A stretch of 64,000 nt of DNA from Spirochaetia bacterium. GTDB lineage: Bacteria > Spirochaetota > Spirochaetia > UBA9216. Below the pieces are notes generated by a model, which was not told where the DNA came from, searched no databases, and saw nothing but the letters and a program-made list of their open reading frames with translations. The DNA is taken from the NCBI GenBank assembly GCA_965140585.1, contig OZ223265.1, positions 32,001 to 96,000 of the forward strand, read 5' to 3'. Position numbers and translations under genes: made by a program. Shown in pieces: positions 3,098 to 18,158 of this stretch; positions within the stretch are counted from its first letter, which is position 1, and each line of letters begins with the position of its first letter.

Positions 3098-3245
3098 AAA
3101 TAACGACGAAATCAGTTGCGCCCTCGATCCTGAGCCGCAGGCGAAGGAATTGGCGCGGTTCTGGAGTGGAGGCATGATCAGTGCCGGAACGTCTCCGCCA
3201 GAACCGTGACAATAGATGGCGACAACTGCATTTCTCATGTTATCT
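3098..3245 (-). repeat. attC-like site 3
   Basis: Minus strand AGATAAC...GTTATTT with arms GAAATgCAGTTG / CAACTGATTTC. Core nearly identical to site 1. Confidence 0.8.
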
Positions 3246-3905: not shown

Positions 3906-4961
3906 TTGACAGGAGATTTAAAAATTGTCATATTTGACAAAATTATGGCTAATTACGTCACTTTAAACAAAAAAAGAAAACGTATTATAATCTTGGCACT
4001 ACCAGGAACTCCTCTCATGTCTATCTCTTCTGCTATTGATGTATTCCAAAATGCTCCTGAAATTTTTAACAAAATCATGAATAACGAAAATCCAACCCCT
4101 TTTGACGTAGACTTAGTTTCACCATCAGGAGAATATATTCAGTGTATGGGAGGTTTTAGGCTTGAAGTAAATACTTCGATGAATGAAATCAAAAAAGCTG
4201 ATTTAGTCATAGTTACTTCATTATATTCGGAAGATGAAACAAAATTGTTTTTGCCAGAAATCCGTAAATGGTTACTTAAAATGCACCTTAGTGGTTCAAT
4301 GCTAGCCAGTTTCTGTACAGGTACATTTGTTCTAGCATCAACAGGATTATTAAACGGAAAGACTGCAACAACTCATTGGGCATCAGCAAGAAAATTATCA
4401 CAAAGGTACCCCCAAATTCATGTAAAGCCTCATAAAATGATTTGTGATGAAGGAACTATTTTTACATCAGGAGGAAGTCATGGAGCTCTTGATTTATGCC
4501 TCTATTTAGTTGAGAAGCTTTATGGAAAAGCTCTTGCTTTGAATTATGCTAAAATTTTAGTTCACGATATCTCTTTTACAGAACAATCAGCTTATGCTAT
4601 TTTCAAAGGCTTACGAGATCATAGAGATACGAAAATCTGGGAAATACAGGACTATATAGAATCTCATTATTCAGAACATTTAGGAATTTCTTATCTGGCT
4701 AATAAGGCTGCTATGTCACGCAGAACATTCGAACGTCGTTTTAAAGCTGCCACAGGAGAATCTCCAGGGGACTACATACAACAGCTGAGGATTGAAGCTG
4801 CTAAACGTATATTAGAAATGGAGTTCGATACATTTGAACAAATTACATTACGTGTGGGGTATGAAGATGCAACAACATTTAGTAAATTATTCTCTAAACG
4901 TGTTGGAGTAACCCCAACTTCTTATCGTAATAAATTCCATTCTGGACAAACTATTCCTTGA
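3906..4961 (+). CDS. GlxA-type regulator (DJ-1/PfpI + AraC HTH)
   Basis: SFCTGTFVLASTGLLNGKTATTHW, and C-terminal MSRRTFERRFK...VGYED...F.KRVGVTP.SYR. Confidence 0.92.
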   Translation: MTGDLKIVIFDKIMANYVTLNKKRKRIIILALPGTPLMSISSAIDVFQNAPEIFNKIMNNENPTPFDVDLVSPSGEYIQCMGGFRLEVNTSMNEIKKADLVIVTSLYSEDETKLFLPEIRKWLLKMHLSGSMLASFCTGTFVLASTGLLNGKTATTHWASARKLSQRYPQIHVKPHKMICDEGTIFTSGGSHGALDLCLYLVEKLYGKALALNYAKILVHDISFTEQSAYAIFKGLRDHRDTKIWEIQDYIESHYSEHLGISYLANKAAMSRRTFERRFKAATGESPGDYIQQLRIEAAKRILEMEFDTFEQITLRVGYEDATTFSKLFSKRVGVTPTSYRNKFHSGQTIP

Positions 4962-5367
4962 TATATTTTTTGCAATGCAATTTCGTTTTACATTTTTGTA
5001 AAGATAACATATTATATTTAATACTTTTCCATATAACTTGAAGTACACACAAGTTTTGAATATTCCATCTAACATACATAATTCACAATGTGGCTCACTT
5101 CTTAATAGACAGAAAATCATTTTCAGAAATTATTTCAATAAATATGTCGTCTCAAGCCCTTCTTTTTCTCAGTTATTATCTGTTTATTACTTTCATCCTT
5201 GTCTATAAGCTTCGAAATATTCTGCCGACTAAATATTAAAATTGCGCCTCTCTTTGTTGCGTAATTGTTCACATTATAACTTACCTCAACTGCAATCTGC
5301 GACGTTTATTCTATGGTAATATTATAGCCAGACTTTCTCCATATAATTAACAATCTACATTACAATC

Positions 5368-5422
5368 TCTCTTAACTACTATTAAATACCAGAATATCGG
5401 GTATTTAATAGTAGTTAAGAGA
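5368..5422. repeat. Perfect 23-bp inverted repeat with 9-nt spacer
   Basis: TCTCTTAACTACTATTAAATACC (5368-5390) / GGTATTTAATAGTAGTTAAGAGA (5400-5422). Confidence 0.95.
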
Positions 5423-5722
5423 CTCTGGATTATTATAGTTATCAAACTAACTTTTTCTTTTCCATTGACGAATATAACTATTCTATCCTGGCATATTCTT
5501 GAATAATCAGAATTTGCAGTCTATACATCAAGCGCAAAGAATCTCGTTCTTAAATACATCTGTATAGAAATGATATTAATAATAACGCCTGATAGACGGA
5601 AATAAAAGTATTTTTAAATGGTATAAATAAAGTGTTTAAATAATGCAATTTCTATCTGGATAAATGACACAAATTGAAGAGAAAATGATAGGATTGGAAA
5701 CTGATAGAGTTTCTTCCAAGAG

Positions 5723-6082
5723 TTAAGCGAGGTTTTCTCTCTCTTGCTTCTCTTCAATCTCTTTTTGAAGTCTCCCCTTACATCCTGCAATTATATCTCG
5801 AATTGAAGTCAATCCTGTTTCATCTATTATTGCAAGATCTTCGATAATGTCAGCATATCTCGGTGGTGGTGTCCATTTTGATTGTTTTTCTCCAGTAAGA
5901 AGGTATTCGATAGTCACACCTAAAGCGGAAGCAATCTTTCCAGCCTGATCGACATTAGGCATAGTATTCCTCTGAATCCAACGGCTAAATGTATCTTGTC
6001 GAACCGGAATTTTCGATGCAACCCAATCTTGAGTTGTATTTTGTCTTTTAATCTCTTCTTTTACTCGTTTCCAGAAGTCCAT
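5723..6082 (-). CDS. XRE-family HTH phage repressor (CI-like)
   Basis: TQDWVASKIPVRQDTFSRW...P.VDQAGKIASALGVTIEYLLTG; divergent from the phage early operon. Confidence 0.85.
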   Translation of the reverse strand: MDFWKRVKEEIKRQNTTQDWVASKIPVRQDTFSRWIQRNTMPNVDQAGKIASALGVTIEYLLTGEKQSKWTPPPRYADIIEDLAIIDETGLTSIRDIIAGCKGRLQKEIEEKQERENLA

Positions 6083-6101
6083 ATTGGTAATATCGGTATA
6101 A

Positions 6102-6183
6102 AATTAGGCAAAAGTGCATAAAAAGTTATTGACTATTTTGCATTTTTGCCTAATTATTAGATTATAAATTCGGCAAAAATGCC
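6102..6183. promoter_or_regulatory. Putative lysis/lysogeny operator region with three related 17-mers
   Basis: AATTAGGCAAAAGTGCA (6102), inverted TGCATTTTTGCCTAATT (6139) and AATTCGGCAAAAATGCC (6167), with TTGACT at 6129. Confidence 0.7.
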
Positions 6184-6361
6184 TAACGGCAACATTAGAT
6201 ATCCATTAGCGGTATATGTATCACTCTCAGAAAAAGCCATCATAGACTCATTCTTTCATTCTCGTCCAAGGCTTAAGAAAGGAGAATCGGTTAAGAAATG
6301 GATTCTTGAAGCAATTGAGTGTGAAGATAACAATAATTCTCAAGAATCCGCTCATTCATAA
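6179..6361 (+). CDS. Small DNA-binding protein in the Cro position (RHH-like)
   Basis: 60 aa, divergent from the repressor, with a beta-alpha-alpha-like pattern (LAVYVSLSEKAIID...VKKWILEAI). Confidence 0.5.
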   Translation: MPNGNIRYPLAVYVSLSEKAIIDSFFHSRPRLKKGESVKKWILEAIECEDNNNSQESAHS

Positions 6362-6661
6362 ATCGGTTATAAAAGAAATTCAACCCCTCAATGGGTATCA
6401 GTTGCGTTGCTCTGATTGTTGGATTTCTTATCAAAACTTTGCCACAGGAGTAATGGTTTTCTAATCTTAATAACATGCAAACATTATTTACGGTCGAAAA
6501 GCGGCGACTACTCCGTTTTACAAATTATTTCGAATTAATTTTTTGTATGAGTTATTGCAGATGAACAGCTGAGATGCATGTTTTTACTACTTCATTGAGC
6601 ATCATCCAGCATCAAGGTTGTTCATCTGTTTCTTGATTGATTCAGGAGGTAATGGGTATCT

Positions 6662-6844
6662 ATGAGCGAAAAGATTAAACGAAAAAGAATAAATCTATTG
6701 CTTCCAGAAGATCTTCTAAAACGAGCTGAATCCGTAGGAGCTTTGAAACACAAAAGCCTCACAGCTTATATCACAGACTTGATCTATACAGATGTAACAA
6801 ACAAAGAGAAGGCAAATATAAACTCCTTCTTTGGGAATGATTAG
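6662..6844 (+). CDS. Ribbon-helix-helix (CopG/Arc-like) protein
   Basis: KRINLLLPEDLLKRAE...SLTAYITDLI; AGGAGG upstream. Confidence 0.75.
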   Translation: MSEKIKRKRINLLLPEDLLKRAESVGALKHKSLTAYITDLIYTDVTNKEKANINSFFGND

Positions 6845-6845
6845 C

Positions 6846-6904
6846 GGTATCAAGGTGGAATACATGAGTATTTCAAAGCTCAGGTTCGATTCCTGAAAAT
6901 ACCA
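6846..6904 (+). ncRNA. Degenerate tRNA-like element (T-arm and partial acceptor, no D-arm)
   Basis: TCAGG-TTCGATT-CCTGA T-arm, GGTAT/ATACC-A ends, internal hairpin GAATAC-ATGA-GTATTT. Confidence 0.45.
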
Positions 6905-7215
6905 TACGGCATACGGTGAGCCTTTGTTGATGAGTGAGAAACACCATACCAGTTGAGAAATAAATACCATCAACTTAGGCAAGACCAAGCCTGCAGACCT
7001 TGAGTAAGTCTGCAGCCCTCCGGGACCGGGTGAAAGCCCCGGATTTTTATAAGGCGGGTAAAATAATGAATAACAAAGAACTTGAATCAGCATAAGAAAT
7101 TGATAGTGCATGAGGCTAAAGGCTGTTTCAGGTCATTCTGAACATGTGCTTAAGGTGGGATGGTTTTTCGATGATAAATGAGCCGCACCTTTTTTAAAAA
7201 CACAGAATCATCGGT

Positions 7216-7311
7216 TGGAACGTGATGCAGTTGGAAAGCATGGGTCGGGACAGGAAAGTCCCGGAGAGTTTTACTCTCCCCTTATCGTCCGTTCAAATCG
7301 GACCGTTCCAG
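7216..7311 (+). ncRNA. tRNA-scaffold RNA with the anticodon arm replaced by a two-hairpin junction
   Basis: Acceptor TGGAACG/CGTTCCA, D-arm ATGC-AGTTGGAAA-GCAT, T-arm GTCCG-TTCAAAT-CGGAC. No canonical anticodon loop. Confidence 0.75.
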
Positions 7312-7350
7312 TACTTTTAGAATTTTGAAACATCTTTTTAGGAGGTATGT

Positions 7351-7539
7351 ATGCCGGAAGTAGAGATCACCTTAAGTGAAAAAGAAGCAGCTGAAATTCT
7401 TGATAGTTTAACTTTCATCGAATCAAAGAGTAGGCAAATGTCGCTTGCAACAAGTCAGATGGATTCAAGACTTCTGCAGATTTCCCATCATGCACAGAGG
7501 ATATCTGAGAAGCTGAAAGATAAAGGCGTTGTTGTATGA
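7351..7539 (+). CDS. Phage hypothetical protein
   Basis: AGGAGG RBS; ATGA overlap with the next gene. Confidence 0.7.
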   Translation: MPEVEITLSEKEAAEILDSLTFIESKSRQMSLATSQMDSRLLQISHHAQRISEKLKDKGVVV

Positions 7540-8528
7540 ACACTGAGCATGCCCTGGCTGTGATTAATGAGCAGAAGATCATCGAATACTTGGATATTAC
7601 CGGTACCGGATCAAACCTTACGGATAACGAAAAGCGGCAGTTTATCGAGGTAGCAAAGGGATGTAACCTAAACCCTTTCAAAAGAGAAATCTACTGCCTG
7701 GCATACGATACACAGGATGGCCGGAAGTTATCAATCATCACAGGGTATGAGGTGTATCTTAAACGGGCGGAGCGGACTGGGATGCTTGATGGATGGAAAG
7801 TTGAGGTTAAAGGTTCGAGGAAAGATAATACTTTCCGGGCTATTCTAACAATCTTTCGGAAGGACTGGGATAAACCATTCATCCATGAGGCATACTTTGT
7901 TGAGTATAACCAAAGAAAGGCGCTATGGAAAACCAAGCCCATCACCATGATTAAAAAGGTAGCCATAGCCCAGGGTTTTAGGATGTGCTTCCCCGACATC
8001 TTTTCAGGCATGCCCTACACCGCCGAGGAATCAGGAGAAGACTTCCGGAACATCACACCAGAGGATTCTTCAGATGATGTTATGCAGCCGAAACCTGAGT
8101 CCTTTGAACCTGTCACAGATCCAGATAGCCCAGATTACATACCAGAAGATGATTACATCTTAAAACCAGAAGATTTCCAAATCGAAGATGCAGACAATAC
8201 CCCGGATTACGAGACTCCTGAAGATAAACACCAAACAATCGGTATACCAGCTGATGAAGCCAAACAGAGTCATATTGATATGGATTTCATTCATGAGGTT
8301 GAAGCCAGGGCAGATGAGATTCGGCAGTTTGCAGAAGCTCACAGAGAGTATATCAGGCCTGATGCATATGCGGCTCTTAATGATCTTGATATAAGAGCTT
8401 TGAAACAAGATGAACCTCATTTATACCTGGACTCAGTTTCAGAGAGGTTGAGAAATACCGTGAAACTTCGAATTGAACAAAAGAAGAGTAAACAAACCGG
8501 AACCCTTGAGAATCCGGAAATCTTTTAA
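7536..8528 (+). CDS. bet: Phage recombination protein Bet (Red-beta/RecT-like SSAP)
   Basis: LNPFKREIY...IITGYEVYLKRAER...W.TKPITMIKKVAIAQGFRMCFP...GMPYTAEE. Confidence 0.85.
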   Translation: MNTEHALAVINEQKIIEYLDITGTGSNLTDNEKRQFIEVAKGCNLNPFKREIYCLAYDTQDGRKLSIITGYEVYLKRAERTGMLDGWKVEVKGSRKDNTFRAILTIFRKDWDKPFIHEAYFVEYNQRKALWKTKPITMIKKVAIAQGFRMCFPDIFSGMPYTAEESGEDFRNITPEDSSDDVMQPKPESFEPVTDPDSPDYIPEDDYILKPEDFQIEDADNTPDYETPEDKHQTIGIPADEAKQSHIDMDFIHEVEARADEIRQFAEAHREYIRPDAYAALNDLDIRALKQDEPHLYLDSVSERLRNTVKLRIEQKKSKQTGTLENPEIF

Positions 8529-8549
8529 ACACATAGGAGATAGAATATT

Positions 8550-8795
8550 TTGAAAATAGGAGCCTGTTGGATAAAGAAATCCAGTACCAATAATGAAACC
8601 TACCTATCCTGCGCACTTGAGATAGTCCCAGTTGAGCTAATGCTTGGAAGCAAAAACTTTGCACTTTTCAAGAACAAGGAAAAGAAAAAAGCTGAACAGC
8701 CGGATTATATAATCTCATTCAATCCACAAAAGCCTTCAAACACCCAGTCTAATAACAACAGCTATGGCGATTTTGAGGATGATATTCCCTTCTAA
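8550..8795 (+). CDS. Small DUF736-like putative ssDNA-binding protein with SSB-type acidic tail
   Basis: KIGACW.K...YLS...ALFKNKEKK...QPDY; ends DFEDDIPF. Confidence 0.65.
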   Translation: MKIGACWIKKSSTNNETYLSCALEIVPVELMLGSKNFALFKNKEKKKAEQPDYIISFNPQKPSNTQSNNNSYGDFEDDIPF

Positions 8796-8806
8796 GGTCG
8801 GAAACA

Positions 8807-10126
8807 ATGAAAAGTCATCTGATGCAGGTAACAGACAGCACAGCCTTTCTCAAAAACGTTCCGGATAACACTTTCACCGCCTGTGTCACTGATGGTCCTT
8901 ATGGAATATCGTTCATGAACTCAGCCTGGGATACTTTCAATCCGGAAGTCCTTAGAGAAAAGATTGAGACAAATAAAAGCACCTTCCAGGGGAAAGAAGT
9001 CAGAAGACCTGCATGTGAGGCTGGACGATACAACCGGGATTTGGAATCAAACAGGGCTTTCCAGGCATGGTGTGAATCATGGGCCTCTGAAGTTTTACGC
9101 ACAGTAAAACCCGGCGGGATTCTTCTTTCATTTTGCGGACCGCGGACATATCACCGGATGGTTGCAGGTATTGAGGATGCAGGATGGATTGTCAAAGATA
9201 CCATGATGTGGATTTATGGTTCTGGGTTTCCAAAGTCTCACAATATCGGAAACTCTGTTGATAAGCAGCTTGGATGTTCAAACCGCGGTCATGCAATAAG
9301 CAGTGGAAACAAGTACCACCCTTCAACTGGTATTGCCAGAGCCTCCGGGGATAAACTTTCAAAGTACCAGGGAAGAACACAAGAAGGTTCTATTTGGGAA
9401 GGCTACGGAACAGCGCTTAAACCTGCTTATGAACCCATAGTTCTTGCTATGAAACCTCTTGATGGAACCTATGCAAACAATGCACTTACCTGGGGAGTTT
9501 CTGGGATAAACATCGATGAAACCAGAATTGAGAATAACGACCGGGAACTCTACGGGATTTCCGGGGATGAAGGGAAAACAAAGGTTTCCTGTTACAAGGA
9601 CCGTGAGCGGGTCTCATATGTTCCTAATGAGCTTGGCCGCTGGCCATCAAACATCCTCCTTGAGCAATATTCCAGAGGTTACCTTGATGCTCAGGCTGAT
9701 GAGAATATAAGCCGGTTTTTCTATTGTTCAAAATCAAGCAAAGCAGAACGGGAAGCAGGCCTATCTGATTTCGAATCCTTCCAGGTAAATGACGGCCGGA
9801 AATCAGAGATTGATAATGCCTACCAGCGCGGAGAGACCAGAAGAAAGAATATCCACCCTACAGTGAAACCTCTATCAGTTATGAGGTACCTGGTGAAGCT
9901 TGTTAAGATGCCTAAAGACAACCACATCCTTGATTTATTCATGGGTTCAGGGACTACCGGCTGTGCATGCGCACTTGAAGGGATAGAAGAGTTTACCGGG
10001 CTTGATAAAACCCCTGATTACCTTCCAATTGCAGAGGCACGAATCAAACACTGGGAAAAGGTTTCAGTTCGGGGGAAAGATTTTGACGAGCTGCAGGGGG
10101 ATTTATTCAATGCTGTTTGCTCATAA
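8807..10126 (+). CDS. Orphan N6-A/N4-C DNA methyltransferase (beta class)
   Basis: Catalytic DGPY (DPPY-like) motif near the N-terminus; HPTVKP and LDLFMGSGTTG near the C-terminus. Confidence 0.88.
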   Translation: MKSHLMQVTDSTAFLKNVPDNTFTACVTDGPYGISFMNSAWDTFNPEVLREKIETNKSTFQGKEVRRPACEAGRYNRDLESNRAFQAWCESWASEVLRTVKPGGILLSFCGPRTYHRMVAGIEDAGWIVKDTMMWIYGSGFPKSHNIGNSVDKQLGCSNRGHAISSGNKYHPSTGIARASGDKLSKYQGRTQEGSIWEGYGTALKPAYEPIVLAMKPLDGTYANNALTWGVSGINIDETRIENNDRELYGISGDEGKTKVSCYKDRERVSYVPNELGRWPSNILLEQYSRGYLDAQADENISRFFYCSKSSKAEREAGLSDFESFQVNDGRKSEIDNAYQRGETRRKNIHPTVKPLSVMRYLVKLVKMPKDNHILDLFMGSGTTGCACALEGIEEFTGLDKTPDYLPIAEARIKHWEKVSVRGKDFDELQGDLFNAVCS

Positions 10127-10138
10127 GGTTGTAATCTG

Positions 10139-10606
10139 ATGGAAAAACTGAAACTAAAAGTCCTTCCTGCAAGCTCTAAAGACCCGCTTACAATCTCTTT
10201 CACCATCGAAAGAGAGGACCTGTATCTAACCAAGGCCTTTTATAAACAATACATCACTCCATGTCTTGATCATTATCTCACCATTGAAGTTAAGAAATGG
10301 TACCGGGAAAGAAGCCTCAATCAGAACAAGCTCTGGCACAAGATGCTCCGGGAACTTTCGGCCGGGCTTCAAACAGATATGGAGCTTATAAAGCAGGGAA
10401 TAAAGGAAGTGGCTGCAGATGAATACGGCTACCCTTCAGCGGTTAACCCGTTTAATAAAAACCGAACACCAAAGCCAAGCAGCCAGGCGACTGTTAAAGA
10501 AATGGGAATACTCATTGAAACAACCTTCATCGAGGGAGGCCAGTCTGGAGTTGATTTATCTGAATACGCGAATGATTACAGGAAGCTTAAGAATGACAGA
10601 GCGTGA
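10139..10606 (+). CDS. NinB/Orf-like phage recombination accessory protein
   Basis: RSLNQNKLWHKMLRELS and SSQATVKEM..LIE motifs. Confidence 0.55.
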   Translation: MEKLKLKVLPASSKDPLTISFTIEREDLYLTKAFYKQYITPCLDHYLTIEVKKWYRERSLNQNKLWHKMLRELSAGLQTDMELIKQGIKEVAADEYGYPSAVNPFNKNRTPKPSSQATVKEMGILIETTFIEGGQSGVDLSEYANDYRKLKNDRA

Positions 10607-10883
10607 ATCATTTAAGCTGCAGGAGCTTAAACAGAAGAAGTTTTTCATCCAGGGCGGTCAGTGCGCGGTCTGCGGGAAAATGCTTCTGGATGGTACTCCC
10701 CAGCTTGCTCACAGAATCCCTCAGTCAGAAATGTTTCTACAGAAATACGGGGAAGCGGTTATTCATCATGAGAAAAACCTGGTACTTGTGTGCAGTGGGA
10801 AGTGTAATGATTCAGTACTTATTCAGAATAACCCGGTGGAAATACAAAGGCTCATCGATGAGATAGAAGGAGAGATTTTATGA
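10593..10883 (+). CDS. Small HNH-fold zinc-binding protein
   Basis: CAVCG...QLAHRIP...NLVLVCSGKCN. Start reassigned to ATG 10593 within ORF 10419..10883. Confidence 0.6.
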   Translation: MTERESFKLQELKQKKFFIQGGQCAVCGKMLLDGTPQLAHRIPQSEMFLQKYGEAVIHHEKNLVLVCSGKCNDSVLIQNNPVEIQRLIDEIEGEIL

Positions 10884-11704
10884 ATGGACAGATGAAAAAT
10901 ATCCCAATGGAACAGGTCCGGTTTATTGGAAACATTCGTGATGCAGATATCGAGATTGATGAGCTGGCTTCATCGATTAAGTACCAGGGATTATTACAGC
11001 CGGTTGTTGTGAGTCAAACCGGAGAGGGATACAACCTCATTGCCGGACACAGACGATTTAGAGCCTGTACCCTTCTTGGATGGACTGAGATCCCCGCGGT
11101 AATCAGAGACTTTGAGAATAACCGGGCTGTACAGCTTACAGAGAACATCCAGCGCAAGGAAATGACCAAACTTGAGGAAAGTACTGCAGTCTATAACCTT
11201 ATGAAAGATATAAAAGTCAATAAATCAAGGCTTGGGAAAATCCTGGGACGAAATCCAAACTGGATTGATAAGCGCTTAAGCTTCTACGAGGTTCGGGAGT
11301 TTCTTCTGGGCGCTGGAATCCTTCCGCTGAAGCTCATTGATACTATGAGTTTTGATATCGCAAAAATCGTGAGCAAGTATAACAGAAAATACTGGTTGCA
11401 GTTATGCTCAAACCTTCTTGGTAAACGCTGGCTCCCTGAACAGATCCGTGCTTACTGTGAGAGTGTTACAAATCCTAATTACAAACCCGCTCAGAACAAG
11501 AAGCCTGGGAATAAATCTGAGAAACGTACTCCGGAGCCCGGTTCTGATAACAAGATAATCCTTGATCTTCTAAACAGTGAAGAGGATGAGTTTTCAATAG
11601 TCCTTGATAAGAAAGATCTTGTAATAAAGCTTATGTTCCCAACTGATAAAGGCTTCAAGACCGTTAGTAACATCCTTCAGAAAGTCGGTGGGGAAATACT
11701 TTGA
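10880..11704 (+). CDS. ParB/Spo0J N-terminal domain protein
   Basis: ELASSIKYQGLLQPVVV...LIAGHRRFRA...ENIQRKEM. Confidence 0.85.
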   Translation: MNGQMKNIPMEQVRFIGNIRDADIEIDELASSIKYQGLLQPVVVSQTGEGYNLIAGHRRFRACTLLGWTEIPAVIRDFENNRAVQLTENIQRKEMTKLEESTAVYNLMKDIKVNKSRLGKILGRNPNWIDKRLSFYEVREFLLGAGILPLKLIDTMSFDIAKIVSKYNRKYWLQLCSNLLGKRWLPEQIRAYCESVTNPNYKPAQNKKPGNKSEKRTPEPGSDNKIILDLLNSEEDEFSIVLDKKDLVIKLMFPTDKGFKTVSNILQKVGGEIL

Positions 11705-11734
11705 AAAGCATCTATTAAACAAAAGGTTAATACT

Positions 11735-12787
11735 ATGGCAGATAAGAAATACTACTGGTTGAAACTTCAAAAGAACTTTTTCAAGCGGCATGATGTAAAA
11801 ATAATCAAGGCAATGGATAACGGATTACAGCATGTTCATAACTACCTGCAGTTGATGCTTGAAAGCATTGATCATGAAGGCACCCTTCGATTCAGTGATG
11901 AAATACCCTATACCGTTTCAATGCTTGCCGCGGTCATCGATGAGGATAAGGACACCTTAGAAAAGACTTTTGAAATTCTCAAGTCTTTCAGGCTGCTTGA
12001 AATCTGGGATGACGGGACCATCTTTCTTACAAAGATTCCGGAAATGCTTGGTTGCGAAAGTGAAGCTGCAGAAAGAGTCCGGAAGTACCGGGAGAAGAAA
12101 CAATCTGAATCTGATGATTCCTCAGAGGATGACCAGGGAGAAAGTTCTATGGATGAACCTGATAACTACCCAGAAAATCCATGTAACGAGGATGTAACAG
12201 ACCCCGCGTTACATTGTAACAACGCTGTAACATCATGTAACGCGCATGAAACGCCGTGTAACGGAGGTGAAACAAGCTGTAACGCTGATGTAACACAGAG
12301 TAAGAGTAAGAGTAAGAGAGAGATAAAGAGTAAGAGTATTAATATGGCGCCAGAGGCTGAGCCTCCCGCGCTTTTTGGTCCGGATGAGATTGAATCTCAG
12401 GAGGAGGCTCCCCCTTCCGGGGAAGAACCTCTGGGGAATATGCTTAGCTTTCCTGACCCTGATACTCTGCTTTATAACCGCGTGAAAGATCTCTTTGAAC
12501 AAAAGCAGCCTCAAGGTAAGTTCACCAACTACGGCAAGGAAGGCGCTGCAATCAAGCAGCTCATCGCGAAATCAAGAGCCAGATCCCCAGATGATGATTT
12601 TCTAATCGGCATGATTCAGATGTTTGATAGACTTCGGGAACAGGAGGGCTTCTACAGGAAACAACCGTTTTTACCTTCGGCGCTCAATTCCTCCGGAATT
12701 TGGGATCGGGTACTCAATGCGGCACAGTTAATCTGGGTAGAGGGACAAACTCTCAAGGACATGGAGGAAGAGGAGATACTATTTTGA
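11735..12787 (+). CDS. Phage replication initiator (replisome organizer N-terminal domain)
   Basis: KKYYWLKLQKNFF...GTLRFSDEIPYT..MLA...SEAAERVRKYRE. Confidence 0.85.
   Translation: MADKKYYWLKLQKNFFKRHDVKIIKAMDNGLQHVHNYLQLMLESIDHEGTLRFSDEIPYTVSMLAAVIDEDKDTLEKTFEILKSFRLLEIWDDGTIFLTKIPEMLGCESEAAERVRKYREKKQSESDDSSEDDQGESSMDEPDNYPENPCNEDVTDPALHCNNAVTSCNAHETPCNGGETSCNADVTQSKSKSKREIKSKSINMAPEAEPPALFGPDEIESQEEAPPSGEEPLGNMLSFPDPDTLLYNRVKDLFEQKQPQGKFTNYGKEGAAIKQLIAKSRARSPDDDFLIGMIQMFDRLREQEGFYRKQPFLPSALNSSGIWDRVLNAAQLIWVEGQTLKDMEEEEILF
12182..12337 (+). repeat. Putative phage replication origin (phased TGTAAC iterons plus purine-rich tract)
   Basis: TGT/AAAC hexamers at 12182, 12193, 12215, 12226, 12236, 12247, 12257, 12268, 12278 and 12289, followed by (AGAGTA)n. 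Confidence 0.7.
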
Positions 12788-13209
12788 CTGTTGAAAAGTT
12801 TATATCAAAGATTCAGGGATCATACGGGACCTACTCTGCAGGTCAGCTGACTGTTGTAAAACAGTACCTTGAAAAACAGAAACCGGCACTTATTGAGTAT
12901 TTATATGCTGAAGTCTTAAAAACTGTCTCCTGGCAATACAAGACCCCACCAGGGCCCAAAGAGTTTGAACAGGCTATGAAGAATGTGAAAGTCCGGCCGG
13001 AACTCAGGATTGAGTTACAGCCTGCCCCTGTACTGAAACTTGATGAACCAGAAGTCCCTGCAGAGGAGGCAAAGAAGTTCTTTGATGAGCTTAAGAGAGT
13101 CACCAGTAAAAAGAAGCCTGAAGGGAGGGTCATTGACTATGCAGAGCGAAAAGCTCAGCTGCAAAGACAAGCTGTTACCCTGCAGGATAAAGCGGCATCG
13201 ATGCGATGA
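12784..13209 (+). CDS. Phage hypothetical protein following the initiator
   Basis: TTG overlapping the initiator stop, with GAGGAG upstream. Confidence 0.55.
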   Translation: MTVEKFISKIQGSYGTYSAGQLTVVKQYLEKQKPALIEYLYAEVLKTVSWQYKTPPGPKEFEQAMKNVKVRPELRIELQPAPVLKLDEPEVPAEEAKKFFDELKRVTSKKKPEGRVIDYAERKAQLQRQAVTLQDKAASMR

Positions 13210-13225
13210 GCTTGGAGATTGTATC

Positions 13226-13483
13226 ATGAAATTCTTAAAAGAGTTCTTAATCAATCTGGGTGCCCTACTGGCTGCACTGGTTCTGCTTTTCTTTCCGGAA
13301 ATCATTGCAGCAATTGCGTGTAGCTTTTTCGGTGTTTCGGAGAATGCTGGTTGGTGGATTGTTCTTATCGGGTTGATTCTTCAGATTGCGGGTGGCATCA
13401 CCCTTGTACATTTCCTGTTTCCTGAAGGAATGGTTATCTCTGAATCGAAAACTGTCATAACTGAAATCAAGGGAGGTAGATAA
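13226..13483 (+). CDS. Small phage membrane protein
   Basis: Two hydrophobic segments; start at internal ATG 13226. Confidence 0.55.
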   Translation: MKFLKEFLINLGALLAALVLLFFPEIIAAIACSFFGVSENAGWWIVLIGLILQIAGGITLVHFLFPEGMVISESKTVITEIKGGR

Positions 13484-13487
13484 CATC

Positions 13488-13628
13488 ATGATTCACTGGG
13501 CCTGGCTTTTACTGATATTCCCTGCATCTTTTTTGAGTTTCATTATGGGGGTGATTATCGCTCACGGTATGCAAATTGAAGTGATTCTCGCTCCTGCAGG
13601 AAAAGAAACCGTGGAGGATAGAACATGA
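13488..13628 (+). CDS. 46-aa hydrophobic phage protein
   Basis: GGAGG RBS, MIHWAWLLLIFPASFLSFIMGVIIAHG..., ATGA overlap with the next gene. Below the ORF-track cutoff. Confidence 0.5.
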   Translation: MIHWAWLLLIFPASFLSFIMGVIIAHGMQIEVILAPAGKETVEDRT

Positions 13629-14011
13629 AAAAGGTGAAACAGTCTGTATGGACATTTCGAAAATCCTATTGCCGGAAACTGCTTAACCAGATATTCCGGA
13701 AAGACAATATCTGTCCAGACTGTGCTGGGCACGGTATCTCACTTGCATTCTGTGATTACGTTGATGAATCGAAAAATGGGCTTGAGATCCTTAAGTGTAG
13801 AAGATGCGCGGGCAAAGGTCATATCTCTTTCGTCATGAAAGACTGGATTGAAAAAGGTCTGCAGCTTCGAACGCTCATGCTTGAGAACCACTGGTCATTT
13901 AAGGATGTGTCGAAGCTTACCGGTTTCGGGGTAGTTGCTGTATCTGATGCGAAACATGGATATTCAGACCCCACTCCTGTACTTGAAGCACTCCCCGGAG
14001 GTTTCAAATGA
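13625..14011 (+). CDS. Phage protein with CxxCxGxG zinc-finger motifs and a C-terminal HTH-like segment
   Basis: CPDCAGHG, CRRCAGKG, WSFKDVSKLTG. Confidence 0.55.
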   Translation: MKKVKQSVWTFRKSYCRKLLNQIFRKDNICPDCAGHGISLAFCDYVDESKNGLEILKCRRCAGKGHISFVMKDWIEKGLQLRTLMLENHWSFKDVSKLTGFGVVAVSDAKHGYSDPTPVLEALPGGFK

Positions 14012-14039
14012 AACCACTTTCACAAGGATTGTTACAGAT

Positions 14040-14435
14040 ATGAGTAAATCTATTACAAAAACACCGGAAAAAGTTACAGATTCCCCGGATCATATAACAA
14101 AAGTCCTGGCAATTCTCACAAAGGTTGATTCCCAGAGATTGAAACCTGAAGCAGCTGTAGAAGAGATTGAGGAGGTATTTGCAGAACTCTATGCACCGGT
14201 AGTCACCCCGGTTATAAACACCTTGATTGAAGGATTCAGGACGCTTGTTCAGATGTATCCGGAACTCATAGACGGTTCATCACCTGAAAGTCAGCTGAAG
14301 CACTGCGGCACATGTGATAATTGGGCGGGTGCTGTTTACCAATGTATGTCTGAGATTGATGAGGAGGTAGGATACTTCGATTGTGCATGTATGGGTAAGC
14401 ACTGGGTACCAGAGACATCCGGGGAAAGGATATAA
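14040..14435 (+). CDS. Phage hypothetical protein (Cys-rich C-terminus)
   Basis: Part of ORF 13935..14435; contains CGTCDNW...C. Confidence 0.5.
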   Translation: MSKSITKTPEKVTDSPDHITKVLAILTKVDSQRLKPEAAVEEIEEVFAELYAPVVTPVINTLIEGFRTLVQMYPELIDGSSPESQLKHCGTCDNWAGAVYQCMSEIDEEVGYFDCACMGKHWVPETSGERI

Positions 14436-14436
14436 G

Positions 14437-14895
14437 ATGCAAAACCGGCTTAAAATGTTGTTCTTCCGGATAATGCTCCTTGGTTGTGTGAACATGTACC
14501 AGAGTTTTGATTATCCGGAAAACCTTCTCCCCGGGATCACCTATTACCTACTTTCACTATTCTGTGCATATCATATTGTCAGAGTACATGGGGATAGAAA
14601 GGGTTGGAAAATAATCCTGGATGAAAGTATTTCAATATTCCTTGTTGCATTTGCCCTGTATCCGTTTTCTGAGTTTATACACTTTGGGAATGTCTATCTA
14701 TGGATGGGGATCATATTGTTACTCTATTTCATGAGTAAGAGGATTGGAAACCCGGGAATTGAAAACCGTATTTCCGGGGATTACAGCATCGGTAAAAATC
14801 GACAGTCTGTAGCGTTTTATTTGAAGGAAGTTAATCATTTTTCTACAGACAGGAAAATGAATAAACCTGTGGATTGCTCCACTGTCGATATTTAA
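14437..14895 (+). CDS. Phage membrane protein
   Basis: Several hydrophobic segments; AAGGA RBS. Confidence 0.5.
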   Translation: MQNRLKMLFFRIMLLGCVNMYQSFDYPENLLPGITYYLLSLFCAYHIVRVHGDRKGWKIILDESISIFLVAFALYPFSEFIHFGNVYLWMGIILLLYFMSKRIGNPGIENRISGDYSIGKNRQSVAFYLKEVNHFSTDRKMNKPVDCSTVDI

Positions 14896-15196
14896 TCAGC
14901 ATAGTTTGCACAGGAGAGCCTTTGGGTAAAAGAAACTCTCCTGCACAAGGGGTTATGTGTCTGCAATTAACACTTGTTTAGTACTTTATATCGGGGACAT
15001 GAATCAAACAACAGTAAAGGAGTCAATTTTACAATTTTAACATATTAAACGGCCCGGGAAGCTATGACGGCCAACATGCATTCCCGAACCGTATAAAGAA
15101 TAAGGAATTTCCCTAATGATAGTTTAGAGAATTCATTTAGAGATATCAAATTTATGATGAAATAAATCAAACTCCTGCGGTAGGCAGGGAAAAAAA

Positions 15197-15298
15197 GACG
15201 GCAGTCCGGGGATTGCACTCCCCGAACAGGTGCGGAAACACCTACAGAAACTCTGCTACCGTCAATCATCTGCTTTGATGATAATCGGCGGGTTTCTA
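15197..15298 (+). ncRNA. Structured leader upstream of the D12-class methyltransferase (D12-methyl-motif-like candidate)
   Basis: GACGGCAG...CTACCGTC stem enclosing the hairpins GGGGA-TTGCAC-TCCCC and AGGTG-CGGAAA-CACCT. Confidence 0.5.
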
Positions 15299-15347
15299 TT
15301 GTTCATTAAGAGGATGCTGAAATAAAACATAGGATTATTACAACAGT

Positions 15348-16139
15348 ATGAAAACACCACTTACTTACTACGGCGGAAAGCAGCAGCTGGCATCTCTTAT
15401 CATTTCACTTATTCCGGAACATAAGCTCTATTGTGAACCCTTTGTCGGAGGGGGCGCGGTATTCTTCCGGAAAGAGCCTTCTTCAGTAGAAGTTGTCAAC
15501 GATATCAACAGTGAACTGGTCAACTTCTATGAGGTCGTGAAAAACGATTTTCAGGCGCTTGAGAAGGAAATCAGGATAACCCTTCACAGCCGGGACCAGC
15601 ACAGGAAAGCAACTGTAATCTATAACAATCCGGATATGTTTGACCGGGTAAAACGAGCCTGGGCGCTGTGGGTAATGTCGAATGAATCCTACTGTGGAAA
15701 GCTTGACGGGTCATTCGGATATGACAGGAAAGGTCAAACAGTAAAGACTATCACCAACAAACGTGAAGGGTTCACAGAGGACTATGCTATCAGGCTTCAG
15801 AATGTACAAATTGAATGTGCCGGGGCACTCCGGATTATCAGAAGCTATGACACCGAGGGTTCATTTTTCTACTGTGACCCACCGTATTTCAATTCTGATA
15901 TGGGGCATTATGACGGGTACACCAAGGAAGATTTTATTGAGCTGCTTGAAACCCTATCAAACATCAAGGGGAAATTCCTTCTCAGCTCATACCCCTCAGA
16001 CATTATTGAGGATTACACCAGGAATAATAACTGGTGGAGGTATGAAAAAACCATGAGTCTTTGTATGACTCATCCTATAAATGGGGCTAAGAGGCAGAAA
16101 CGGGAAATCCTTACAGCCAATTACATTCCGGGGACATAG
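15348..16139 (+). CDS. Dam-like D12-class N6-adenine DNA methyltransferase (orphan)
   Basis: PLTYYGGKQQLA, EPFVGGGAVF, NDIN, YCDPPY. Confidence 0.92.
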   Translation: MKTPLTYYGGKQQLASLIISLIPEHKLYCEPFVGGGAVFFRKEPSSVEVVNDINSELVNFYEVVKNDFQALEKEIRITLHSRDQHRKATVIYNNPDMFDRVKRAWALWVMSNESYCGKLDGSFGYDRKGQTVKTITNKREGFTEDYAIRLQNVQIECAGALRIIRSYDTEGSFFYCDPPYFNSDMGHYDGYTKEDFIELLETLSNIKGKFLLSSYPSDIIEDYTRNNNWWRYEKTMSLCMTHPINGAKRQKREILTANYIPGT

Positions 16140-16210
16140 AAATCGGATTAATAAGTAAATGTAATCATAGGTCTGGTTCCATTAGATCACGTCTTATAAA
16201 AGGAGATTGA

Positions 16211-16477
16211 ATGAAGCTTGCAGAGCCTACAACGACAGTATCAGATTGGATGATTGAGAAGGCAGGGTATGAAAACTGGGTGGAGTTTTGTAAACGGTTC
16301 GGAGGTCAAAACTGGTGGATTCCAACTACTCCGGCAATCGTTCAAAGGGATGAGGAAATCCGAAGGCTTTATAATGATCTTATATTAACGCCTGGAACCA
16401 AGCAAACGATTATTTTAAAGAAATTATCTCAAAAGTATAAAATTTCAATTCGAACATTAAGAAGAGTCATATCATAA
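16211..16477 (+). CDS. Mor/C-family phage transcription activator
   Basis: FCKRFGGQNWWIP...RDEEIRRLYN...LSQKYKISIRTLRRVI. Confidence 0.75.
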   Translation: MKLAEPTTTVSDWMIEKAGYENWVEFCKRFGGQNWWIPTTPAIVQRDEEIRRLYNDLILTPGTKQTIILKKLSQKYKISIRTLRRVIS

Positions 16478-16583
16478 TATGTCAATTTGACTTTCATGTA
16501 ATGAATTATTAAAATTCAATTACTACATTTCTTCATAGCCTTCAACTTATTTCTTTAATATTTAATTTCAAAAGGAGAAACCC

Positions 16584-17021
16584 TTGAGAAGTATAGATAA
16601 GATAATGGTAATTGAAAGAGACTTTCCACTAGCCCTTTATATGAAAATCAGGATACATGCTCTGGGCTTAAAAGTTGATAAAATCTATTCAGATTATGAC
16701 CAGGCAAAAAGAGAATTTAAATTAAATAGACCTGATTTAATCATAGTTGATGTAGAAAAGAATGATGAAAACCTGGCAACTGAAACAGTGAAAAAGATGC
16801 AGGAGATTGATGACTCCATAAAGGTTATTTTTATCATCGATGCTCATCATAATGATAATCTTTCAGAAAATCTATCAGAGATACAACCATATATGGTTTT
16901 AACAAAACCGATTGGAAATAGGCAATTTGCCTACTCGATACTTTCCGCGTTAAGTGAGAAAAATAGTGGTTCTGTTGTTGAAACACAAAAAACAACTAAT
17001 AAACAGAAGAATATTAAATAA
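16584..17021 (+). CDS. Stand-alone receiver (REC) domain protein
   Basis: PDLIIVD...KVIFI...VLTKPIGNRQ; paralogue of 28827..29252. Confidence 0.75.
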   Translation: MRSIDKIMVIERDFPLALYMKIRIHALGLKVDKIYSDYDQAKREFKLNRPDLIIVDVEKNDENLATETVKKMQEIDDSIKVIFIIDAHHNDNLSENLSEIQPYMVLTKPIGNRQFAYSILSALSEKNSGSVVETQKTTNKQKNIK

Positions 17022-17585
17022 TCACTGAATTTGACGTCTAAAAGCTTCATCAACGCTTAGAAACTCCAACTTTCCTTTAAAATATTCACCAATAATATAC
17101 TTATCAGAATTAAATGCTAATCGAGGGATATTTTGGGAGTTAACCCATGCTAATTTAGTAATATCATCACCAGCCTCCATGTTCCCTGATACAACAGAGG
17201 CATAAAGAACGACAACCAGAGTTTCAAGATCAGCTCTTATAATATTTGTTGTAACATTTATAATTGATTTGATTTCTATCTTTAATCCTGTTTCTTCAAA
17301 GACTTCTCGATGCCCGGCTTGTAGAAAATTCTCATTAGTTTCAATAAATCCGCACGGCATACACCATAGATCATGATCACCTCTCCTTCTTCCCACCAAT
17401 ATTTCATTGTTGGAATTTTCTATTAAGACAGAGACTCCAGGAAGAGGATTCTTGTACTGAATAAACTTGCATGATGGACAGCTATTATTCGTATCCGATA
17501 TGAGCTCTTTACCACAACATGGACAATATTTATAGTCAGTAATGTTGGACTGAAATGAATTGATTTGAGAAAATGCCTGTTTCAA
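17022..17585 (-). CDS. NUDIX hydrolase with N-terminal zinc ribbon
   Basis: CPCCG...CPSC and Nudix box GFIETNENFLQAGHREVFEETGL; TTG start after AAGGA. Confidence 0.88.
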   Translation of the reverse strand: MKQAFSQINSFQSNITDYKYCPCCGKELISDTNNSCPSCKFIQYKNPLPGVSVLIENSNNEILVGRRRGDHDLWCMPCGFIETNENFLQAGHREVFEETGLKIEIKSIINVTTNIIRADLETLVVVLYASVVSGNMEAGDDITKLAWVNSQNIPRLAFNSDKYIIGEYFKGKLEFLSVDEAFRRQIQ

Positions 17586-17595
17586 TATAAAATCC

Positions 17596-17991
17596 TTATT
17601 GTTGGTTGAATATATCAGGAAGTTTAATGTCACAGCCTTTGTATAATATGGTTTCAACTTTCTCCATATGTAAAATCGTATTATTTCGGCTGTTTATCTG
17701 GGCATCAAGATAGGGACCGTTAAACCTCAATGTTGGGAAATTTAAATCTATTTTCGAAATGATGTTAAAATCTTTATCTATATATGAATGAGTTGATATG
17801 GTCCACCATTCATCTCCAGAGGTATTGATCTCAAGCAACCCAACAATATATTCACCCTCTATATTGTTTATTTTTTGAATGGCTGCAGCATATATTACTT
17901 CATTATTGTACTTGTACATGAAGAGATCTGCAGAAAAAAGGCTTTCTACACAAAAAATCATAAGAAATATCAATACAGCTCTTTTTATCAT
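17596..17991 (-). CDS. Secreted hypothetical protein
   Basis: Signal-peptide-like MIKRAVLIFLMIFCVESLFS. Confidence 0.6.
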   Translation of the reverse strand: MIKRAVLIFLMIFCVESLFSADLFMYKYNNEVIYAAAIQKINNIEGEYIVGLLEINTSGDEWWTISTHSYIDKDFNIISKIDLNFPTLRFNGPYLDAQINSRNNTILHMEKVETILYKGCDIKLPDIFNQQ

Positions 17992-18158
17992 GGGAATTCC
18001 TTAATATTCATCTTTTGGCTATATTTTATATGAATATGGAATAATATGTGAATACCAATTATAGATAAAATGTTCAAAAAGGAATCTTATTCAAATTCAT
18101 CTATCTTCGTTTTTAACTGCAAAAATAACTCATCAGACTCCGTCTGTACAATTTAACT

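Follow-up and report, generated by a model that had tools for sequence, protein, structure and literature searches.

Mimicry of transfer RNA (tRNA) is already a known theme, represented by transfer-messenger RNA (tmRNA), Y RNAs and viral tRNA-like structures. MALAT1 mascRNA and the tRNA-like/pre-miRNA units of gammaherpesvirus 68 are tRNA-like RNAs cut by RNase P and RNase Z. Among phages, the C4 RNAs of P1 and P7 and the CI RNA of P4 are small structured immunity RNAs which are cut by RNase P from the transcripts of early or immunity operons; their action rests on short antisense pairing with sites of their own operon, they contain no full cloverleaf, and the C4 family is included in Rfam. 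Here, a stretch of 64,000 nucleotides (nt), positions 32,001-96,000 of contig OZ223265.1 of a Spirochaetia bacterium (assembly GCA_965140585.1), referred to as the window in its whole length, was analyzed computationally for a tRNA-shaped RNA gene located at positions 7216-7311 of its plus strand, which we label W.

Several further RNAs come close to W in one respect or another. In the engineered tRNA scaffold of Ponchon and Dardel, as described in PMC3753655, the anticodon stem-loop is replaced by an insert, and cells process and stabilise the resulting RNA. In the YrlA RNAs, according to the account in PMC4201824, the acceptor-like stem is a closed stem-loop, the two ends of the RNA lie in a helix that binds Ro60, and the gene lies beside that of Ro60. 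GOLLD and ROOL are structured non-coding prophage RNAs often found beside tRNAs (PMC5737381), and a large survey of candidate phage RNAs mentions "tRNAs or tRNA-like structures" in general terms (PMC10690425). With moderate confidence, W is read here as a stable RNA on a tRNA scaffold that does not decode; it would stem from a temperate phage that has since become defective, would be processed by tRNA enzymes and would carry a structured cargo.

A tRNA frame around a two-hairpin module

W is 96 nt long up to the discriminator base G, and CCA is not encoded. Its parts are as follows:

7216..7222, plus strand: 5′ strand of the acceptor stem, UGGAACG (U1-A72, G2-C71, G3-C70); by direct reading, TGGAACG pairs with CGTTCCA at 7304-7310 in 7/7 Watson-Crick pairs
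7225..7241, plus strand: D arm AUGC-AGUUGGAAA-GCAU by direct reading; stem ATGC (7225-7228) with GCAT (7238-7241), loop AGTTGGAAA holding A14, G15, G18, G19 and A21
7242..7281, plus strand: central Y module in the place of the anticodon arm; a 3-base-pair (bp) GGG/CCC stem (GGG 7242-7244, followed by T 7245; CCC 7279-7281) around hairpin 1 (CGGGAC-AGGAAA-GTCCCG, 7246-7263, 6 bp, loop AGGAAA) and hairpin 2 (GAGAGT-TTT-ACTCTC, 7264-7278, 6 bp, loop UUU)
7282..7286, plus strand: variable loop UUAUC, 5 nt, ending in C48, which is available for pairing with G15
7287..7303, plus strand: T arm GUCCG-UUCAAAU-CGGAC, from direct reading and fold, with a perfect stem
7304..7311, plus strand: 3′ strand of the acceptor stem, CGUUCCA, and discriminator G73 (7311); the U-rich trailer UACUUUUAG comes next

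With U8, the T at 7223, the elbow and core bases present in W are U8, A14, G15, G18, G19, A21, C48, G53, U54, U55, C56, A58 and C61, together with the Y11-R24 pair. All 31 of the 31 proposed pairs are canonical, including the 15 in the central module. The minimum free energy (MFE) of W amounts to −41.4 kcal/mol versus −26.9 ± 3.7 kcal/mol for shuffled sequences (z −3.9; 0 of 200 shuffles as good), and the isolated 40-nt central module reaches −18.5 kcal/mol (z −2.1). The MFE structure keeps the acceptor stem, the T arm and both hairpins, the latter in a register of 5 bp and 7 bp; the D arm and the GGG/CCC helix are absent from it. The cloverleaf with the Y module, D arm included, was calculated at −38.0 kcal/mol, i.e., 3.4 kcal/mol above the MFE. 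Since these two structures differ in register, the central junction may adopt either arrangement.

To define the frame, a strict scaffold rule was applied to both strands: a perfect 7-bp acceptor stem, U8, a 4-bp D stem with an A...GG loop, any centre, a perfect 5-bp T stem with a TTCRANN loop, and a total length of 70-160 nt. In the 4.85-Mb genome this rule returned 21 matches, namely 20 tRNAs also called by ARAGORN and W, which is thus the sole non-tRNA obeying it there, and no match on both strands of the reversed genome (9.7 Mb). Because of this difference, the resemblance of W to tRNA is not attributed to chance. W occurs in a single copy in the host genome, and a degenerate pattern that takes its structure into account matched the window once, with 0 matches expected.

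The frame points to a particular source. The acceptor stem of the host tRNA-Gln(UUG), UGGGACG/CGUCCCA, differs from that of W, UGGAACG/CGUUCCA, only in one compensated pair (G4-C69 to A4-U69), and G73 is kept. The D and T arms of W differ from those of this tRNA, and no close copy of W was found among the 46 host tRNAs. A covariance model built from W alone (R1) gave tRNA-Gln(UUG) genes of other genomes in the class as its best matches apart from W itself. As judged from these sequence comparisons, W most likely descended from a gene of the tRNA-Gln(UUG) type. Only 10 host tRNAs out of 46 carry CCA at their end or just past it; in a host of this kind, the majority depend on RNase Z and the CCA-adding enzyme. 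Two additional heptamers, UGGGAUG (7161-7167) and UGGGUCG (7241-7247), could also pair with CGUUCCA via G.U or with one mismatch, and one of the elements described below (L034) likewise has an internal second "5′ half", UGGGGC plus AUGG-AGUUGCAA-CCAU. Such extra 5′-strand-like pieces could be a matter of chance, the trace of a fusion of tRNA pieces, or an alternative pairing.

Default ARAGORN called neither a tRNA nor a tmRNA in the window. With Rfam, no hit in the window reached gathering score, and even a cut-off of E ≤ 10 over 6900-7600 brought up no tRNA match. A regular anticodon arm (5-bp stem, 7-nt loop, U33, purine 37) is missing from the dominant folds of W, in which the loops are 6 nt and 3 nt long. 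A first-pass annotation made from the sequence alone had listed the stems, U8, GG in the D loop, the 5-nt variable loop, the T arm and the two hairpins, all of which were recovered at the same positions. Its view of W as a tRNA scaffold with a non-anticodon insert instead of a decayed tRNA is borne out by the 31/31 canonical pairs and by the scaffold rule, and the failure of tRNA detectors that it had predicted did occur with both default ARAGORN and Rfam.

Elements in the same slot upstream of other RecT genes

W lies upstream of a small open reading frame (ORF) and a gene for a RecT-family protein. Because W is a singleton by sequence, the same slot was checked beside related RecT genes. Relatives of RecT at E ≤ 1e-20 were present in 12 of 401 genomes of the class, including that of W (G000). 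In total, 28 foreign RecT loci were examined, in sets of 14 (from the class), 3 and 11 (from the phylum); the 14 class loci were scanned with R1 (filters off), ARAGORN and Rfam. In two of these 28 loci, the contig extends no more than 192 nt upstream of RecT, and one locus (L075) was omitted from the phylum set as it represents the same place as another (L029). A search with the RecT sequence alone yielded no relatives in genome contigs or viral contigs; with a RecT alignment (A3), two short metagenome contigs (those with 192 nt upstream) and three viral loci were obtained, two of the latter being the L023 and L034 sequences again.

A tRNA-like gene in the slot of W was found at 3 of the 28 foreign loci (L023, L034 and L067), and the 11 further RecT loci, taken from 401 genomes of the phylum, contained none. 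L023 and L034 belong to one genome (G078), and in both the tRNA-like gene is situated upstream of a 115-amino-acid (aa) ORF and a RecT gene whose product is 57-60% identical to the window RecT. The Rfam tRNA model scores them at 41.9 bits (L023) and 38.2 bits (L034) by skipping 44 and 66 nt, respectively, in the centre. L067 is a viral contig (RecT 54% identical) with two tandem tRNA-like elements in the same slot. The first is of the L034 type (Rfam tRNA 39.9 bits); the other, element C, has an acceptor stem (UGGGGCA/UGCCUCA) and a T arm, and its D arm is missing. Default ARAGORN calls none of the elements at these three loci.

Comparison of L023 with L034 showed that their flanks are nearly identical (290/306 positions in the upstream 300 nt, 295/301 in the downstream 300 nt) and that they have the 5′ acceptor strand and the T arm/3′ strand in common. 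From the D arm to the variable region, the two are unrelated (54 of 111 aligned columns; 70 versus 104 nt). Judged from this alignment, the centre is a cassette-like replacement between conserved ends. The RNAs of L034 and L067, on the other hand, differ at 4 of 138 positions: the pair G1-C72 is A1-U72 in the other RNA, G7.U66 is G7-C66, and a single base is changed in the anticodon-like loop. Their downstream 300 nt, by comparison, are identical at only 253 of 309 positions. As the stem changes in the RNA all preserve pairing and the flank has diverged to this extent, purifying selection on pairing in the L034/L067 RNA is indicated. The L023 centre consists of a loop of 6 or 8 nt and, after it, a long hairpin, and that of L034 and L067 of a 7-nt loop with C33 (ACCCUAU, ACCCCAU) followed by 66 extra nucleotides; a normal anticodon arm is found in none of them. 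The elements of this slot have their frame in common but not their centre.

The small ORFs downstream of W and of L023 have no detectable similarity to each other and no PHROG family. A pattern made from motifs shared by the window and L023 returned only the L023/L034 sequences again (as L037 and L040) and 18 chance matches in coding DNA. The idea that the leader in the window is homologous to the region upstream of L023 was therefore dropped, and BLAST finds no similarity between them either; a further motif pattern added a single chance match (L069).

Additional observations were made around these loci. The L023/L034 genome also contains, at ~1300-1540 of L059, a decayed copy of the L034 type with a broken T stem and 19 differences from L034, located directly after what is left of a decayed tRNA-Met gene, its 3′ part. 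In L066 and L067, intact genes for tRNA-Met(CAT) precede the tRNA-like genes by ~1.7 kb. L023 (~700-985), L034, L067 (~1675-1875), and L061 and L062 (~1300-1530) share a conserved stretch of ~200-300 nt that is non-coding. One genome holds it at least four times and a viral contig holds it as well; in two cases, a tRNA-like gene follows immediately. A long-range helix (AACCAGUG...CACUGGUU) delimits this stretch, which includes a hairpin CCGGG-N-CCGGA and the motif ACCGAGCGCCGGGGAAUCGUGG, has no Rfam match and is possibly an undescribed structured RNA. Furthermore, a CRISPR array in the same genome (L060, G078:C1, ~1131451-1131484; repeat GTCGCTCCCTTCGCGGGAGCGTGGATTGAAAC) carries a spacer 100% identical to L023 703-736, which is part of the non-coding region upstream of the tRNA-like gene of the L023 prophage; its sister prophage, L034, differs there. 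As the L023 prophage resides in the same genome, this spacer is self-targeting.

Genomic setting of W

The surroundings of W in the window consist of the following features:

5723..6082, minus strand: CI-like repressor (Pfam Phage_CI_repr, E 3.1e-7; HTH_3), divergent from the early operon that holds W
6179..6361: 60-aa ORF on the early-operon side of the promoter-like site
6662..6844, plus strand: second 60-aa ORF from the ORF list, with a strong ribosome-binding site
6845..7215, plus strand: non-coding leader between this 60-aa ORF and W, from the ORF list and scan
6846..6902, plus strand: possible second, reduced tRNA-like element "M" (weak; Rfam tRNA 18.3 bits, E 1.3, below threshold)
7351..7539, plus strand: 62-aa ORF with an AGGAGG ribosome-binding site, beginning 40 nt past W and overlapping the RecT start
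7536..8528, plus strand: RecT-family single-strand annealing protein (Pfam PF03837, E 2.8e-26)
15348..16139: Dam-type methylase, after the replisome organiser
16211..16477: 88-aa ORF after the Dam-type methylase, Mor-like by eye only

A divergent promoter-like site (6129-6157) is located inside an inverted repeat between the repressor and the early operon. Its −35 element is flanked by a 17-nt inverted repeat within 6092-6167 (AATTAGGCAAAAGTGCA ... TGCATTTTTGCCTAATT, one mismatch), and a similar half-site is found again at ~6170-6185; these repeats and the half-site are probably operator sites. Rfam microRNA matches at the 6092-6167 inverted repeat are spurious. W is on the same strand as the early operon and occupies the 3′ end of a 505-nt stretch without a credible ORF (6845-7350), the fold of which has a z of −2.4 as a whole; a minus-strand ORF (6716-7111) that overlaps the 60-aa gene and has no family was rejected as spurious. 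The fold of the 76 nt directly upstream of W is not significant (z −0.3). About 310 nt upstream of W, M shows a three-way arrangement with a 5-bp closing stem (GGUAU/AUACC), one hairpin and a T-arm-like UCAGG-UUCGAUU-CCUGA (z −2.55; 4 of 200 shuffles as good), and may be a second, reduced tRNA-like element.

The ORFs next to W are intact, and the 62-aa ORF has no Pfam or PHROG family. Downstream of RecT follow a DNA methylase, a weak NinB-like ORF, a ParB-N protein and the replisome organiser. Altogether, the phage-like region (5700-16500) contains genes for immunity, recombination, methylation and replication only; none of the ORFs tested there was recognised as an integrase, capsid, tail or lysis gene, and host-type signalling genes (GGDEF/EAL, histidine kinase, HD-GYP-like) begin at ~18.1 kb. 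As structural and lysis genes are missing, the element holding W is an early-region remnant of ~11 kb or a satellite-like element, no complete prophage. No flanking direct repeats (attachment sites) were found in 4400-18400, and the sister genome G001, being non-syntenic, does not mark out the borders of the element.

Elsewhere in the window, two intergenic stretches of ~115-145 nt (~2165-2281 and ~3100-3243) are repeated in G001, with more than 25 copies within ~75 kb of its contig C3 and two on C4 (76-95% identity); by sequence, they form a clustered repeat family.

Interpretation and comparison with known systems

In the proposed reading, W would be part of the early-operon transcript, which would start at the promoter beside the repressor gene and extend through the small ORF and RecT to the replication genes. 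Determinants for cleavage by RNase P and RNase Z are present in W, namely a 12-bp helix of acceptor stem and T arm, the T-loop/D-loop elbow, a 3′ end without CCA, and a U-rich trailer. Helix and elbow would direct RNase P to the 5′ end, and RNase Z together with the CCA-adding enzyme to the 3′ end; the absent CCA and the U-rich trailer would suit the maturation route that most host tRNAs must use. The excised, tRNA-folded RNA would be stable, and with no 7-nt anticodon loop in the dominant fold it would not decode. Instead, its two-hairpin cargo might bind a protein or RNA partner and, in conflicts between phage and host or between phages, regulate, determine specificity or act as a decoy. Excision would incidentally sever the early transcript shortly before the RecT operon begins. 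The partners named here are guesses: proteins that grip a tRNA at its elbow and acceptor end, for which W would be a decoy, or a phage protein that binds to W.

Two outcomes that the first-pass annotation had named as damaging to its proposal were not observed: the positional counterparts L023, L034 and L067 are non-canonical and go uncalled by default ARAGORN instead of being ordinary tRNAs, and splicing of the insert finds no support, as no single deletion creates a good canonical anticodon arm in the dominant fold. Its further idea of an antisense or immunity RNA, or of a decoy, found no support. The best complementarity of the insert to the phage region at 5.6-17 kb amounts to −38.8 kcal/mol (shuffled minima −32.1 ± 2.6 kcal/mol, lowest −37.7); in part it is formed by 8 nt within the replisome-organiser gene that are complementary to the loop CAGGAAAG. 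Compared with the shuffles this was judged not significant, so that antisense action on the own ~11-kb region was rejected, and, in combination with the missing Rfam match, so was the identification of W as an RNA of the C4 type.

A number of results weigh against the proposed reading. The complementarity search of 5.6-17 kb identified no partner or target of W. BLAST of its 96 nt against 61 related genomes returned just chance-level pieces of 15-31 nt; R1, run on 150 genomes, found ordinary tRNAs and weak noise only, with strict filters that also missed the elements of G078; the RNA region of W was unmatched in GenBank phages, where the RecT gene alone was matched; exact patterns found no relative in IMG/VR; and the structure-aware degenerate pattern had 0 matches in JGI metagenomes. 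Since W stands alone in sequence, covariation support for W itself is absent. At 25 of the 28 foreign RecT loci there is no tRNA-like element. For the elements that do exist, BLAST shows no similarity between W and L023-type non-coding regions, and the folds of the elements at L023, L034 and L067 are not significant compared with shuffles (z −1.7, −1.3 and −0.6). R1 scores L023 at 31 bits and ordinary tRNA-Gln genes at 28-33 bits; because these genes score alike, the score of L023 reflects tRNA-likeness, not specific kinship with W. As far as the sequences indicate, the kinship of W to the three loci would thus be one of position and shape only. Moreover, a terminator-like hairpin with a T run (7026-7042) precedes W, no sigma-70-like promoter is predicted on the plus strand at 7050-7215, and W may no longer matter, its host element being a remnant of ~11 kb without structural genes.

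The replacement between the 95-98% identical flanks of L023 and L034, taken together with the two-hairpin module of W, allows a more far-reaching and tentative suggestion, to which we give a rather low likelihood: some temperate phages of this bacterial class may have a dedicated slot upstream of the small-ORF/RecT operon for natural tRNA scaffolds with an exchangeable central cassette that sets a specificity. If so, the frame would guarantee processing and stability, and the cassette would set, for example, heteroimmunity between related phages; it could instead titrate a host or rival protein that grips the tRNA elbow and acceptor end.

It is unlikely, in our estimation, that W is a cis-acting processing or punctuation element at which RNase P and RNase Z cut the early transcript, either to part its immunity-proximal region from the small ORF and RecT or to define the 5′ end of the message for the RecT operon, with an excised RNA that has no function itself. 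The position of W, 40 nt upstream of the next ORF on the same strand and with no promoter of its own predicted, would fit such a role. The same applies to the acceptor/T minihelix, which is the feature common to all positional counterparts, including element C of L067 with its missing D arm, and to the differing centres of the lineages. However, a mere cleavage signal would need neither a perfect D arm nor elbow bases nor 15 perfect central pairs. A working cargo is favoured over a bare cleavage signal because the 15 central pairs of W are perfect, because the centres of L023 and L034 were swapped wholesale as folded units and not eroded, and because the L034/L067 centre is strongly conserved, with 1 change versus 18% divergence in the flank.

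We consider it quite unlikely that W is a non-functional relic, i.e., a rearranged phage tRNA or tRNA-like gene drifting in a dead prophage. The phage-like region with its early genes only and the host signalling genes next to it, the singleton status of W, the clearly decayed copy in L059, which is of a related type, and the second, imperfect 5′-strand-like heptamer UGGGUCG in W, as expected from fused tRNA pieces, are all consistent with decay. Yet 0 of 31 pairs are broken, the bases for tertiary contacts are all kept, the neighbouring ORFs are intact, and the sole difference from the tRNA-Gln acceptor stem is doubly compensated. It also appears improbable that a 17-nt anticodon arm would have decayed into a perfectly paired module of 40 nt.

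We regard it as highly improbable that W is an unusual tRNA that is aminoacylatable or decodes, be it class-II-like, with hairpin 2 as variable arm and G73 as in serine tRNAs, or with hairpin 2 as anticodon arm and hairpin 1 as an extra arm. Seryl- and leucyl-tRNA synthetases do not need the anticodon, and L023 is called as a tRNA-Leu(UAA) with a 10-nt "intron" and has A73. When introns were allowed or thresholds lowered, ARAGORN gave three parses of W, which are mutually incompatible. With introns allowed, W is a tRNA-Ser(GGA) with a 4-nt "intron" and hairpin 2 as long variable arm, which demands a stem with a U.U mismatch, an 11-nt loop and 8 bases between variable arm and T stem. At a threshold of 80%, a 71-nt tRNA-Lys(UUU) is called at 7241-7311, in which the heptamer UGGGUCG serves as 5′ strand of the acceptor stem, while hairpins 1 and 2 take the parts of D arm and anticodon arm, respectively; the third parse is a "stop(UUA)" tRNA with a 22-nt intron. 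Default ARAGORN and Rfam, by contrast, reject W, and no protein-spliced introns of 4-22 nt are known from bacteria. A class II or allo-tRNA-like identity was rejected, as no long variable arm with linkers of 1-2 bases on either side directly follows a canonical anticodon arm. Among all single deletions that leave a 17-nt arm, U33 and purine 37 are obtained only via hairpin 2 opened by two pairs; this hairpin alone can supply the 5-bp stem and the 7-nt loop (GGAGA-GUUUUAC-UCUCC, with U33, anticodon UUU, A37 and an atypical G32). In this loop, however, the pairs G32-C38 and U33-A37 would leave a triloop, as they do in the MFE structure. With the conflicting parses and no good canonical arm from any single deletion, the intron reading was discarded. 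Since the G32 loop closes to a triloop and the inner Lys(UUU) parse lies 23 kcal/mol above the MFE, decoding by W is treated as unlikely.

That W is a chance resemblance in a non-coding spacer is of negligible probability: AT-rich intergenic DNA can hold hairpins, and a relaxed rule (acceptor stem and T arm only) gives 5 matches in 290 kb of reversed sequence, but the strict rule separates 20 tRNAs and W from 0 matches in 9.7 Mb, and none of 200 shuffles folds as well (z −3.9).

As a non-decoding scaffold, W can be compared with described RNAs. It resembles canonical tRNA (RF00005), especially tRNA-Gln(UUG), in the 7-bp acceptor stem, U8, the D arm with G18G19, C48 and the UUCAAAU T loop, and differs from it in that the dominant fold contains a 40-nt two-hairpin module instead of the 5-bp/7-nt anticodon arm. 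The tRNA-like domain of tmRNA shares with W an acceptor stem and a T arm without an anticodon; tmRNA, however, has no true D stem and contains a tag reading frame and pseudoknots, whereas W is only 96 nt long. Identity with tmRNA was rejected, as ARAGORN finds none in the window and the host tmRNA is on another contig. In mascRNA and the gammaherpesvirus 68 units, a tRNA-like fold likewise serves as processing and stability module of a non-decoding RNA, and the herpesvirus one is linked to a hairpin cargo; these RNAs belong to another domain of life, and their cargo comes after the tRNA-like part, whereas that of W lies inside.

W ends open, in its acceptor stem, whereas the acceptor-like stem of YrlA is closed in the description of PMC4201824. 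A TROVE/Ro60 gene (PF05731) was not found in the whole genome of W (98.5% complete) by a search that was positive in two control genomes. The missing Ro60 gene, the open ends and the lack of an Rfam match at gathering score led to the rejection of W as a YrlA RNA. Similar to GOLLD and ROOL as portrayed in PMC5737381, W is associated with a non-coding stretch, at the end of which it stands; this stretch of 505 nt is much shorter and weakly structured (z −2.4), and no GOLLD or ROOL match was obtained with Rfam even at E ≤ 10 over 5900-7400.

With the engineered tRNA scaffold, as far as it is set out in PMC3753655, W shares the kept acceptor, D and T arms and an insertion site with a closing stem; the former is man-made, whereas W is natural, prophage-borne, equipped with a 34-nt cargo and known from sequence alone. 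The engineered scaffold shows that bacteria process an RNA of this design and, as is reported, protect it by means of their tRNA machinery (PMC3753655).

Within the open-access text covered by a limited search, no account was found of a phage RNA built in this way, with open tRNA ends, a full D/T elbow and a structured cargo replacing the anticodon arm. Because tRNA finders and Rfam miss or mislabel the examples found here, similar genes may be systematically overlooked in phage annotation. If W is expressed, phages would exploit host tRNA maturation to deliver and stabilise small effector RNAs, which would also offer a handle on the targets of the cargo, by a design that is the same as the one used by engineers to stabilise recombinant RNA.

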